Source of the DNA: an uncultured Collinsella sp.
Lineage (GTDB): Bacteria > Actinomycetota > Coriobacteriia > Coriobacteriales > Coriobacteriaceae
Direction: 5' to 3'
DNA length: 64,000 bases
Assembly: GCA_959026535.1 (NCBI GenBank)
Contig: CAUFMB010000005.1
Span: forward strand, 348 to 64,347
How positions within the stretch are numbered: position 1 is the first letter of the stretch; each line of letters starts with the position of its first letter. The position numbers and the translations under genes were made by a program. Positions 55,763-58,151 of the stretch are shown here, one piece after another. Under the pieces are notes generated by a model. It worked only from the letters and a program-made list of their open reading frames with translations. It was not told the origin of the DNA and did no database searches.

Positions 55763-56014
55763 TTAGAACTTGTCGTGGAAGGTACGCGCAATGACCTCGT
55801 CCTGCTGCTCCTTGGTGAGCGTGTGGAAGTTCACGGCATAGCCGGAAACGCGGATGGTCAGCTGCGGGTACTTCTCGGGGTGAGCCTGAGCGTCGAGCAA
55901 CGTCTCACGGTTGAAGACGTTGATGTTCAGGTGGTGGCCACCCTTCTCGGCGTAAGCGTCGAGCATGTGGACCAGGTTATCGGCCTGAGTCTCGGAAACT
56001 TCAGAAACCTTCAT
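55763..56014 (-). CDS. Stand-alone glycyl-radical domain protein (83 aa, GrcA/YfiD-like; corresponds to the missing C-terminus of the adjacent PFL)
   Basis: [90 protein letters not shown] glycyl-radical fingerprint. GAAGGAGA RBS 7 nt upstream of the ATG at 56014. Confidence 0.85.
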
Positions 56015-56037
56015 AATGTGTCTCCTTCGATCGATAG

Positions 56038-56098
56038 GCGCCGGCCGAAACCGGCGCACTAATCAGTAATCGTTATTGTTAGTATAGCACTAACAATA
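56038..56098 (-). other. Two hairpins in the spacer between the pfl body and the glycyl-radical-domain gene
   Basis: Minus strand: TATTGTTAGT-gctat-ACTAACAATA (56074-56098, starts 1 nt after the pflB stop) and GCGCCGG-tttcgg-CCGGCGC (56038-56057). Much more A/T-rich than the flanks. Confidence 0.7.
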
Positions 56099-56099
56099 G

Positions 56100-58151
56100 T
56101 TACTCGCCCAGCTGATCAAGGTCGATATCGCCAAAGAACACCTGGTCCTCCTTGCCGAGCGCACTCGGGATGATGGAGAAGGTGTTGGAGATGCCGTCCT
56201 GAGCATCGCGGAACGGGAGCTTGGAAACCGAAGACAGCGAAGCGATGGCGCCATGGCTATCGCGCTTGTGCATGGGGTTAGCACCCGGGGCGAACGGCTG
56301 GCCAGCCTTGCGGCCGTCGGGCGTGGAGCCGGTCTTCTTACCGTACACGACGTTGGAGGTAATGGTCAGAACCGAGGTCGTGGGCACGGAGTTGCGGTAG
56401 GTGTCGTTCATGCGGATGTACTCCATGAACTGGTGCACAACGTCGTGAGCGATCTGGTCGACGCGGTCGTCGTCGTTACCGTACTTGGGGAACTCGCCCT
56501 CGGTCTCGAAGTCGACGATGATGCCGTTCTCGTCACGGACGGGGTGGACCTTGGCGTACTTGATGGCGGACAGGGAGTCAGCCACGACGGAAAGGCCAGC
56601 GATGCCCGTAGCGAACCAGCGGTGCACGTGCTTGTCGTGCAGAGCCATCTGGATGCGCTCGTAGCAATACTTGTCGTGCATGTAGTGAATGATGTTCAGC
56701 GAGTTGACGTACACGCCAGCAAGCCACTTCATCATGTCGTTGTACTTGGCCACAACGTCGTCGTAATCGAGCGTGTCGCCCTCGACGGCGCGATACTTGG
56801 GGCCGACCTGCTTCTTGGAGACCTCGTCAACACCGCCGTTGAGTGCGTAGAGCAGGCACTTGGCCAGGTTGGCGCGGGCGCCGAAGAACTGCATCTCCTT
56901 GCCGATGCGCATGGAGGACACGCAGCAGGCAATGCCATAGTCGTCGCCGTGATAGACGCGCATGAGGTCGTCGTTCTCGTACTGGATCGAGGAGCTGGCG
57001 ACAGAAGTCTTGGCGCAGAACTTCTTGAAGTTCTCGGGCAGACGGGTCGACCACAGAACGGTCATGTTGGGCTCGGGGCTGGTGCCCATGTTCTCGAGCG
57101 TGTGCAGGTAGCGGTAGCTCATCTTGGTAACGAGCGTACGGCCGTCAACACCCATGCCGCCGATGGACTCGGTGACCCACTGCGGATCGCCGGTGAACAG
57201 GGCCTGGTACTCGGGGGTACGGGCAAACTTGACCATGCGGAGCTTCATGATGAAGTGATCCACGAACTCCTGGATCTGCTCCTCGGTGAAGGTGCCGTTG
57301 GCAAGGTCGCGCTCAGCGTAGATGTCGATGAACGTAGAGGTACGGCCGATGGACATAGCGGCGCCGTTCTGCTCCTTGACGGCAGCAAGGTAGGCGAAGT
57401 ACATCCACTGGATGGCCTCCTGCGTGTTGGTAGCAGGGTTGGAAATATCGAAACCATAGGTCTCGGCCATCATCTTGAGCTCGCCGAGGGCGCGGATCTG
57501 CTCCTGCAGCTCCTCGCGATCGCGGATGTTGTCGGCGGTCATGACCGTCGGAGTGGAAGCCTTCTGGGCCTCCTTGTCCTTGATCAGGTAGTCGACGCCG
57601 TACAGGGCAACACGACGGTAGTCGCCGATGATGCGGCCGCGGCCATAGCCATCGGGCAGACCGGTGATGATGTGAGCCGAGCGGCAAGCACGCATCTCGG
57701 GGGTGTAAACATCGAAGACGCCAGCGTTGTGGGTCTTGCGCTCGAAGGTGTAGCGCTCGACAACGTTCTCGTCGACCTTGTAGCCGTGCTGGCTGGCAGC
57801 CTGGCAAGCGATGCGGATACCACCGTTGACGTGCAGCGCGCGCTTGAGCGGCTTGTCGGTCTGGAGGCCAACAATGGTCTCCTTGTCGCGATGGGCATTA
57901 TCGATGTAGCCAGCGGGGTGGCTCACGATACCCGTGACGGTCTTGGTGTCCATATCGAGGACACCACCCTGCTCGCGCTCCTTAAGCAGCAGGTCGAGAA
58001 CCTCGCCCCACAGCTCCTTGGTACGCTCGGTCGGACCTACGAGGAACGACTCATCGCCCTCGTAGGGGGTGTAGTTCTTCTGGATGAAGTCTCGGACGTC
58101 AACCTCTCCCGTCCAGATACCTTCCTTGAAGCCTTCCCATGCCTCCTGCAT
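56100..58151 (-). CDS. pflB: Pyruvate formate-lyase catalytic body lacking the glycyl-radical domain
   Basis: PFL-like along its length. Active-site Cys-Cys [12 protein letters not shown]. Homology ends at ...[12 protein letters not shown], followed by a novel 14-aa tail [14 protein letters not shown] and TAA. No RVSGY motif. Confidence 0.9.

Follow-up and report, generated by a model that had tools for sequence, protein, structure and literature searches.

In the 64,000-nucleotide stretch of uncultured Collinsella DNA analysed here (the window), pyruvate formate-lyase (PFL) is encoded in two pieces: a 683-aa catalytic body without a glycyl-radical loop, and an 83-aa GrcA3-type protein, encoded just downstream, that carries the loop. 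From the way the two sequences complement each other, and by analogy with an engineered Escherichia coli system, we consider it probable that they form an obligately two-subunit PFL that acts in trans and whose radical subunit could be replaced. A first-pass annotation had read the locus as a genuine two-gene PFL in which the radical glycine is missing from the body, and this is supported by conservation, selection and the occurrence of the split in other lineages. The features discussed are collected in Table 1.

Table 1. Features of the split PFL locus (positions in the window)
Feature	Position	Strand	Description
pflB-type catalytic body	56100..58151	-	683 aa + stop; PFL-like barrel, without glycyl-radical loop
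Cys409-Cys410 codons, predicted catalytic pair	56922..56927	-	equivalent to E. coli C418/C419; IACCVS by translation
14-aa C-terminal tail of body, aa 670-683	56103..56144	-	conserved proximal tail motif; distal Cys motif of relatives absent
Intercistronic spacer	56015..56099	-	85 nt; two hairpins and Shine-Dalgarno GAAGGAGA
grcA3, predicted glycyl-radical subunit	55763..56014	-	83 aa + stop; passes NF038360; RefSeq exact match
Gly58 codon, predicted radical glycine	55841..55843	-	within RVSGYAV by translation; equivalent to E. coli Gly734
Long inverted repeat	55613..55735	.	arms of 59 nt with 85% complementarity; just downstream of grcA3
pflA, predicted PFL-activating radical-SAM enzyme	47706..48545	-	TIGR02493 284.4 bits vs cutoff 231.75; Radical_SAM + Fer4_12

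The body matches Pfam family PF02901 over aa 17–604 (E = 2.4e-215) and on its own passes the PFL equivalog model TIGR01255, covering profile positions 1–665 with 1083.7 bits against a cutoff of 994.2. Aligned to E. coli PFL it covers residues 9–680, and its stop codon falls at the equivalent of residue ∼680. Translation agrees with the earlier assignment of the Cys-Cys site to the body and of the radical glycine loop to the small ORF: IACCVS occupies codons 407–412 of the body, its Cys pair being invariant among 20 aligned bodies, while the RVSGYAV loop is missing from the body polypeptide and is found instead on the separate 83-aa ORF. The exact RefSeq match of the body is named ‘formate C-acetyltransferase [Collinsella aerofaciens]’. 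An AF2 prediction of the body alone, based on an alignment of 20 sequences that are 74–78% identical, had a pLDDT of 37.8 and was discarded.

The small ORF passes the NCBIfam model for GrcA3, NF038360, with 164.6 bits against a cutoff of 158, over positions 2–77 of a 78-position profile; relatives from Fannyhessea and Fimimorpha reach 166.2 and 171 bits respectively. Its exact match in RefSeq is ‘autonomous glycyl radical cofactor GrcA3 [Collinsella]’. It aligns with residues 679–756 of E. coli PFL and 66–125 of YfiD, and retrieves the YfiD structure 6OWR by phmmer with an E-value of 3.7e-23. The predicted radical glycine, Gly58, is invariant in 88 GrcA3 sequences. A search of 50% representatives yielded mainly contig-edge fragments and mis-started ORFs and was used solely to supply diverse GrcA3-like sequences. 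In an AF2 model of GrcA3 alone, the glycine hairpin and the helices are confidently predicted and the beta10 segment is disordered. The best structural matches of the model are YfiD (6OWR; TM 0.78 normalized to the target) and the PFL C-terminus, with an rmsd of 0.9 Å over 45 columns to 2PFL. The predicted disorder of beta10 in the lone subunit fits a strand that would need the barrel.

Together the two ORFs tile both TIGR01255, with the small ORF at positions 663–743 of 744, and E. coli PFL, in neither case with a missing segment. The Pfam Gly_radical profile had been expected to match the 83-aa ORF alone. It is instead divided by the split, with profile positions 1–51 in aa 620–670 of the body and 50–105 in the small ORF. 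The break lies 55 residues before the radical glycine in PFL numbering, rather than the 60–65 first estimated.

The earlier description of a 683-aa and an 83-aa ORF, 85 nt apart, the smaller with its own ribosome-binding site, is confirmed by the coordinates and by the Shine-Dalgarno sequence GAAGGAGA at 56021–56028, 6 nt 5′ of the small-ORF ATG. Folding and inverted-repeat analysis place two hairpins in the spacer. Hairpin 1 (56074–56098) is a perfect 10 bp stem that begins 1 nt past the body stop codon; hairpin 2 lies at about 56038–56057. Scans of 55400–58750 detected nothing significant for the spacer, whether a promoter or terminator consensus or a match to Rfam. The hairpin sequence has no second copy in the window, which makes it no obvious MITE. 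Within Collinsella the spacer exists as 20 near-identical variants. The longer inverted repeat that follows grcA3, whose exact core motif occurs in only nine other loci, may mark the end of the operon or stabilize its RNA.

If the split were an accident of this assembly, sister genomes should show one uninterrupted ORF of ∼750 aa. The same stop codon and tail were instead present in every one of the 80 species-representative Collinsella genomes fetched. The exact sequences of the body and of the small protein each occur on at least 1000 contigs, and the matches listed in a contig scan queried with the 83-aa protein were all Collinsella loci of 99–100% identity. Nucleotide diversity at codon position 3 is 0.058 in the body and 0.026 in grcA3, against 0.0013 and 0.0038 at positions 1 and 2, a 7- to 45-fold reduction across the two genes. 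Purifying selection acts strongly on both genes.

The split is found well beyond this genus. We sampled 11 lineages, namely Enorma, C. tanakaei, Olsenella uli, Fannyhessea vaginae, Christensenellales, Fimimorpha, Egerieicola, Lachnospiraceae, Ruminococcus, Amygdalobacter and this window, and in all 11 the body is followed by the small-subunit gene. The comparison with related Coriobacteriia that had been suggested thus finds the split in Enorma, C. tanakaei, Olsenella and Fannyhessea; with six Clostridia lineages added, it spans two phyla. The 11 small subunits form one clade, which excludes both the C-termini of unsplit PFLs and the E. coli PflB/YfiD pair. The Fannyhessea body is 74% identical to that of the window, and all 118 of its full-length top relatives are 693–723 aa long; because of this, none of them is a full-length PFL. 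One 821-aa protein was considered as a re-fused enzyme and rejected, being an assembly artefact with an internal duplication and with the tail still at its end. The usual arrangement in the sampled lineages, seen in Olsenella, Fannyhessea and the Clostridia operons, has pflA directly after grcA3, and in an Enorma-type locus it also lies just downstream. In the present species it is 7.2 kb downstream of grcA3 and not adjacent, and it is likewise nearby yet non-adjacent in other split-PFL relatives.

E. coli GrcA/YfiD resembles GrcA3 in being a small protein with an RVSGYAV loop, homologous to the PFL C-terminus and of the same fold; once activated by PflA, it acts in trans, passing its radical to the Cys pair of a PFL body. 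Its partner, however, is a complete PFL that needs it only after oxygen cleavage, whereas the body described here never carries a radical domain. The grcA gene of E. coli is unlinked, whereas the small gene here is putatively cotranscribed with the body. GrcA3 starts 14 residues earlier than YfiD in PFL numbering (679 as against 693), with only ∼7 extra residues in front. It also fails the GrcA/YfiD model TIGR04365 (96.8 bits, cutoff 170) and belongs to a separate clade. Aligned to PFL and YfiD, GrcA3 lacks the disordered N-terminus of ∼60 aa that YfiD needs to bind oxygen-cleaved PFL (PMC8683613).

Two observations in E. coli bear on function in trans. PflB(G734A) yields formate in vivo only when GrcA is present (PMC12338860), and an engineered pair, tPFL(1–695) with truncYfiD(61–127), catalyses as the wild type once activated (Andorfer et al. 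2021; PMC8683613). It is because this pair is fully active after activation that we regard an obligate two-subunit PFL as the likeliest reading of the locus. The engineered pieces are nearly the same as the natural ones, but artificial, and tPFL is cut 15 residues later. Compared with them, the natural small subunit gains the helix of PFL residues 679–692, and the natural body gains a conserved acidic tail. Binding of YfiD to tPFL was too weak for ITC, and activation was lower (PMC8683613); because of this weakness, a natural split would need compensating contacts.

Other glycyl radical enzymes also have small accessory polypeptides, among them benzylsuccinate synthase (alpha-beta-gamma) and 4-hydroxyphenylacetate decarboxylase. 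Their radical glycine is on the large subunit and their small subunits carry Fe-S clusters, whereas in the present system it is the small subunit that bears the radical glycine. Phage T4 Y06I is reported to be a phage-encoded GrcA homologue.

The first-pass annotation knew of no characterized two-piece PFL. That statement stands in so far as our literature search found no paper describing a natural split PFL, and none using the name ‘GrcA3’. The novelty is nevertheless weakened, because NCBI curates GrcA3, RefSeq gives this very protein that name and the PDB holds two bodies. The NCBIfam short name, rad_fix_GrcA3, implies a repair cofactor, and neither the name nor the description line of NF038360 mentions a truncated partner. 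The two PDB entries, 38lb (Fannyhessea vaginae) and 38la (Amygdalobacter nucleatus), both titled ‘Formate acetyltransferase’, are natural bodies without the radical domain, which the window body matches with 1192 and 1069 bits respectively (E-value 0). They are newer than, and absent from, our library of PDB entries released up to 2026-04-08, and the literature search found no paper on them. The body in 38lb shares the proximal tail motif with the window body, and in both species a GrcA3-type gene follows the body, as here. Both entries contain body chains only, and no GrcA3-like chain was found in the PDB.

A stop codon and a short insert in a well-known gene are the usual signature of error, and the split might on that account be an assembly or sequencing fault, or a strain-specific pseudogene derived from a normal pflB. 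The comparative data refute this and leave it practically no probability: the architecture is identical in 80 independent Collinsella assemblies, both exact proteins recur on at least 1000 contigs each, the split is conserved in two phyla, and diversity at codon positions 1 and 2 is strongly depressed. We give barely more credit to a joining of the two ORFs into a PFL of normal length, whether by readthrough, frameshifting, ribosomal bypass over the hairpin or protein splicing. The perfect hairpin immediately after the body stop would suit such an event, as would the three lineages whose small gene shares the reading frame of the body. In the window, however, the body frame meets further stops after six codons of spacer and the small gene lies in another frame. 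Across the split lineages the spacers range from 15 to 281 nt in all three frames, most continuations contain in-frame stops, and every small gene of the 11 lineages keeps its own ATG and an AGGAG-type Shine-Dalgarno site, which makes independent initiation the conserved mode. Nor is there room for intein halves, because homology to PFL begins at residue 8 of the 83 in the small ORF. Recoding and inteins were both rejected on these points of frame, stops and size. A third reading takes GrcA3 for a classical spare part serving an intact PFL encoded elsewhere, the truncated body being inactive or otherwise employed. The NCBI family name ‘autonomous glycyl radical cofactor’ suggests as much, and E. 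coli GrcA acts in this way. We nonetheless judge it unlikely: purifying selection on the body is strong, its score exceeds the PFL equivalog cutoff, and in 11 of 11 lineages GrcA3 directly follows a body devoid of radical domain, usually in one operon with pflA. The same reading is opposed by the missing N-terminus, by the low GrcA model score and by the uniformly short relatives of the Fannyhessea body.

The C-terminal tail raises a further possibility, which we rate as a minority one but well ahead of the preceding three, namely that the radical subunit requires an essential third element as its placeholder or clamp: the conserved body tail or, in Clostridia, a separate protein. The 14-aa tail had been described as non-homologous, and this proved wrong. 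In 10 of the 11 split lineages sampled, ALGKxx is succeeded by a motif xV[FM]xG[DE]xD[LVM]D, and comparison of these sequences identifies the tail as a conserved motif of split PFLs rather than filler. Synonymous diversity in its codons is very low, with one of 14 third positions segregating among 74 Collinsella compared with 44 of 100 in the preceding codons. Relatives carry distal Cys motifs (..ENPxxDCACC.. or CAC[RC]EP[NT]L) either fused to the body or on a middle ORF. In Clostridia this middle ORF is a separate protein of 66–70 aa whose first 30 aa are 43% identical to the helix and beta10 of GrcA3, in effect a copy of these elements without the glycine. Against an essential role, the distal Cys part is lost in C. 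aerofaciens, and the Amygdalobacter body ends at ...SLGKED without a tail; the tail is therefore dispensable in some lineages.

Returning to the obligate two-subunit PFL, we envisage the following. The 683-aa body would supply all but the last strand of the ten-stranded barrel, together with the substrate sites and Cys409-Cys410. GrcA3, made from its own Shine-Dalgarno site on a transcript presumably shared with the body, would supply the helix, beta10, the Gly58 finger loop and the C-terminal helix, corresponding to residues 679–759 of an ordinary PFL. PflA would take a hydrogen from Gly58, with the small subunit either free or already bound, and GrcA3 would dock by strand complementation, bringing the radical beside Cys410, after which catalysis may proceed as in single-chain PFL. 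Should oxygen cleave at the radical glycine, only the 9-kDa subunit would be lost, and the 76-kDa body could be re-armed with fresh GrcA3. C. aerofaciens produces 16–21 mM formate in pure culture (PMC9980632).

A more speculative extension, which we think doubtful as a whole though worth stating, is that split PFLs make up a distinct and widespread class of glycyl radical enzyme. GrcA3 would then be a diffusible, consumable cofactor that PflA activates off the enzyme and that enters by strand complementation; the acidic/Cys tail or the Clostridia middle protein might act as placeholder or gate of the empty slot, and phages of anaerobes might carry a GrcA3-type gene with which to re-arm host bodies.

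PFL founded the glycyl radical enzyme family and is its most widespread member, and the locus described here is a natural form of a laboratory construct. How the buried radical domain of PFL reaches its activase, and how YfiD binds, are open questions (PMC8683613; 2026 review PMC13450708). A separate 9-kDa radical domain in nature is what structural groups have engineered, and it should make it possible to study directly how such a domain is activated, docked and exchanged. The name ‘autonomous cofactor GrcA3’ undersells a subunit that is probably essential, and the label ‘Formate C-acetyltransferase’ is being put on proteins that would be unable to work alone. Among abundant anaerobes of the human gut and vagina, including Collinsella, Olsenella, Fannyhessea, Amygdalobacter and many Clostridia, PFL seems as a rule to have the split layout, which suggests a low-cost way of repairing the enzyme after transient exposure to oxygen.

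The first-pass annotation had read the pyruvate formate-lyase (PFL) of the window as two ORFs, and this description proved correct: the coordinates, the 85-nt gap, the catalytic Cys pair of the body (IACCVS) and the radical motif of the small ORF (RVSGYAV, Gly58) were all verified. The ATG of the small ORF is preceded by GAAGGAGA at a distance of 6 nt. In a Pfam scan, the PFL-like domain PF02901 covered aa 17–604 of the large ORF, as predicted, but Gly_radical, expected on the 83-aa ORF only, was shared by both, with profile positions 1–51 on aa 620–670 of the large ORF and 50–105 on aa 7–63 of the small one. 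TIGR01255, the NCBIfam PFL equivalog, was divided similarly (1–665 and 663–743), and the large ORF scored 1083.7 bits against a cutoff of 994.2, although it lacks the C-terminus. When compared with the solved structure, E. coli PFL 9–680 aligned to the large ORF and 679–756 to the small one. The break lies 55 residues upstream of the radical Gly, rather than 60–65 as originally proposed.

Features of the window and of comparison loci (L-numbers, from other genomes or IMG/VR contigs)
Feature	Position	Strand	Remarks
PFL body, 683 aa	56100–58151	−	PF02901, TIGR01255 matches
grcA3, 83 aa	55763–56014	−	Gly_radical, NF038360 matches
Conserved tail-codon and 85-nt spacer region	56015–56144		hairpins at 56074–56098 and about 56038–56057
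Inverted repeat directly downstream of grcA3	55613–55735		59-nt arms, 85% complementary, 5-nt loop
LacI-family regulator, two GH32 hydrolases, PTS EIIBC, DegV gene	48711–55480		between grcA3 and pflA
pflA (activating enzyme)	47706–48545	−	passes PFLA equivalog model
Clostridia middle ORFs	L088:3775–3981, L089:3750–3953, L091:3262–3474, L092:3288–3488		conserved; no counterpart in window
Amygdalobacter nucleatus genes	L093:2203–5791		order pflA, thioredoxin gene, body, small subunit
Viral segment with a GrcA3-type gene	L105:1230–7542		after nrdD and nrdG-like activase, before T4-type RNA ligase

A genome scan with the small protein returned 80 loci, all from Collinsella and one per species-level genome, in which this protein was 99–100% identical. 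An uninterrupted ORF of ~750 aa in sister genomes would have counted against the split; instead, the body ended with the tail (its last 14 aa) and a stop in 80/80 loci. Both genes were complete in 74 of the 80, with the same lengths and a spacer of 84–85 nt. Among 74 aligned sequences (73 of the complete loci plus the window), nucleotide diversity at codon position 3 and positions 1+2, respectively, was 0.058 and 0.0013 in the body, and 0.026 and 0.0038 in grcA3; strong purifying selection thus acts on both. RefSeq holds the exact proteins, as ‘formate C-acetyltransferase [Collinsella aerofaciens]’ and ‘MULTISPECIES: autonomous glycyl radical cofactor GrcA3 [Collinsella]’, each on at least 1000 contigs. 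Given the invariant tail and stop, the purifying selection and the RefSeq entries, we rejected an assembly artefact or pseudogene as the origin of the split.

In the same 74 sequences, third positions varied in 1 of the 14 tail codons versus 44 of the 100 preceding codons, and spacer diversity (π = 0.0205) was below that of synonymous sites in the body (0.058). This suggests that tail codons and spacer may form a constrained RNA or DNA element; the region gave no Rfam, promoter or terminator match. Enorma carries a different AT-rich palindrome in the spacer position. The core motif of the inverted repeat downstream of grcA3 occurred in only nine of the other fetched loci, so this repeat is variable among Collinsella.

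A body lacking the radical domain, followed by a radical subunit of ~80 aa, was the order seen in every one of the 11 lineages sampled, window included.

Split PFL genes in the other lineages sampled
Lineage	Body (aa)	Between body and small gene	Small subunit (aa)	pflA
Enorma phocaeensis-type	693	151 nt	83	downstream in L082
C. tanakaei	693	33 nt	83	two genes downstream
Fannyhessea vaginae	718	42 nt	80	follows
Olsenella uli	696	34 nt	83	3 nt after
Christensenellales	709	15 nt	80	follows
Ca. Fimimorpha	678	68-aa ORF	80	follows
Ca. Egerieicola	686	67-aa ORF	80	follows
Lachnospiraceae	679	70-aa ORF	81	follows
Ruminococcus	713	66-aa ORF	80	one gene further
Amygdalobacter nucleatus	666		77	upstream, with thioredoxin gene

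The Fannyhessea body had 118 full-length top relatives, some of them named proteins from Olsenella and Thermophilibacter, and all fell within 693–723 aa. In a neighbour-joining tree, built from a short alignment without bootstrap, all 11 small subunits formed one clade that included neither the C-termini of unsplit PFLs nor the PflB/YfiD pair of E. coli. Together with the common tail motif, this suggests a single fission event followed by spread, and that the radical subunit arose independently of enterobacterial GrcA. We conclude that the fission of PFL into catalytic body and radical subunit is natural, real, conserved and widespread. The in-operon thioredoxin of Amygdalobacter may hint that the redox state of the Cys pair, or of the activase, is maintained by this protein.

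The tail had been considered non-homologous, but it is not random: in 10/11 split bodies, Amygdalobacter being the exception, ALGKxx is followed by xV[FM]xG[DE]xD[LVM]D, with variants such as AVMFDELDLD, NVMFGECDMC, QVFMGDLEVD, KVFMGDLDLD and RIFVGDIDVD. The Amygdalobacter body has no tail, and that of C. aerofaciens is the 14-aa proximal part only. In most relatives the chain goes on beyond it, through a brief strand-like stretch to a Cys motif (..VSFENPAPCCGDC, ..IQIENPAPDCACC, ..ISVENPDCAEC, ..DCACCEPNLSVDEAE). In four Clostridia lineages this distal part is a separate 66–70-aa ORF between body and GrcA3, whose first 30 aa resemble the helix and beta10 of GrcA3 (43% identity, pairwise E 3e-7). 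This middle ORF matches NF038360 weakly, with no Pfam family and no radical glycine, and terminates in a C-x4-5-C..P[NT]L motif that belongs to the body tail in Coriobacteriia and Christensenellales. We hypothesize that tail or middle ORF might hold the place of the radical subunit or clamp it.

In the window, a LacI/GH32/PTS sugar cassette and a DegV gene separate pflA from grcA3, placing the two 7.2 kb apart. Since pflA directly follows the small gene in Olsenella and Fannyhessea, and is just downstream in the Enorma-type locus, this sugar-utilization block looks inserted into an ancestral operon.

The small protein exceeded the cutoff of the NCBI curated family NF038360 (GrcA3; 164.6 against 158), and fell below those for GrcA (96.8 against 170) and GrcA2 (100.3 against 145). 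The name ‘GrcA3’ was not found in the literature searched, where the only spare parts treated in a June 2026 review on glycyl radical enzymes are of the YfiD type (PMC13450708). The first-pass annotation knew of no characterized two-piece PFL, and our search for split or truncated PFL likewise gave only an engineered construct. As far as we searched, databases thus list the split, but the literature neither describes nor characterizes it. Among the PDB sequences are two natural bodies without the radical domain, labelled only ‘Formate acetyltransferase’: 38lb, traced to F. vaginae (718 aa, with a long Cys-containing tail), and 38la, traced to A. nucleatus (666 aa, no tail). Both species are associated with bacterial vaginosis. 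Each chain carries a 21-residue tag, and both entries are newer than April 2026 and absent from a Foldseek library of releases up to 2026-04-08. No GrcA3-like chain was present among PDB sequences and no citation was found for either entry; they are presumably of structural-genomics origin.

Large viral contigs from IMG/VR (L094–L117) also carry stand-alone GrcA3-type genes (77–86 aa, 69–78% identical), mostly without a PFL body within 4 kb. It is possible that phages infecting anaerobes provide a split-type radical subunit, as a parallel to Y06I of T4.

Translational or post-translational joining of body and small ORF is unlikely. Spacers across lineages occupy all three frames, continuation in the body frame runs into stops in the window and several other lineages, and every small gene carries an ATG and a Shine–Dalgarno sequence of its own; an intein would have no room, as PFL homology of the small ORF starts at residue 8. 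A non-covalent two-subunit PFL is the best-supported reading, from which we infer complex formation, activation and replaceability of the radical subunit. Two E. coli systems are close laboratory precedents: tPFL(1–695) with truncYfiD(61–127), which binds weakly and yet reaches the wild-type kcat of 204 s−1 once activated (PMC8683613), and PflB(G734A), which yields formate in vivo only with GrcA present (PMC12338860). The natural small subunit begins 14 residues before the structured part of YfiD and thereby adds the PFL 679–692 helix, which may help to offset the weak binding of the engineered pair. When GrcA3 alone was modelled with AF2 (pLDDT 67), the Gly hairpin and flanking helices took the fold seen in YfiD (6OWR) and at the C-terminus of PFL, and the beta10 segment was disordered, which fits strand complementation into the body. 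Pure cultures of C. aerofaciens produce formate strongly (PMC9980632; PMC9381525), and therefore some PFL is active in this species.
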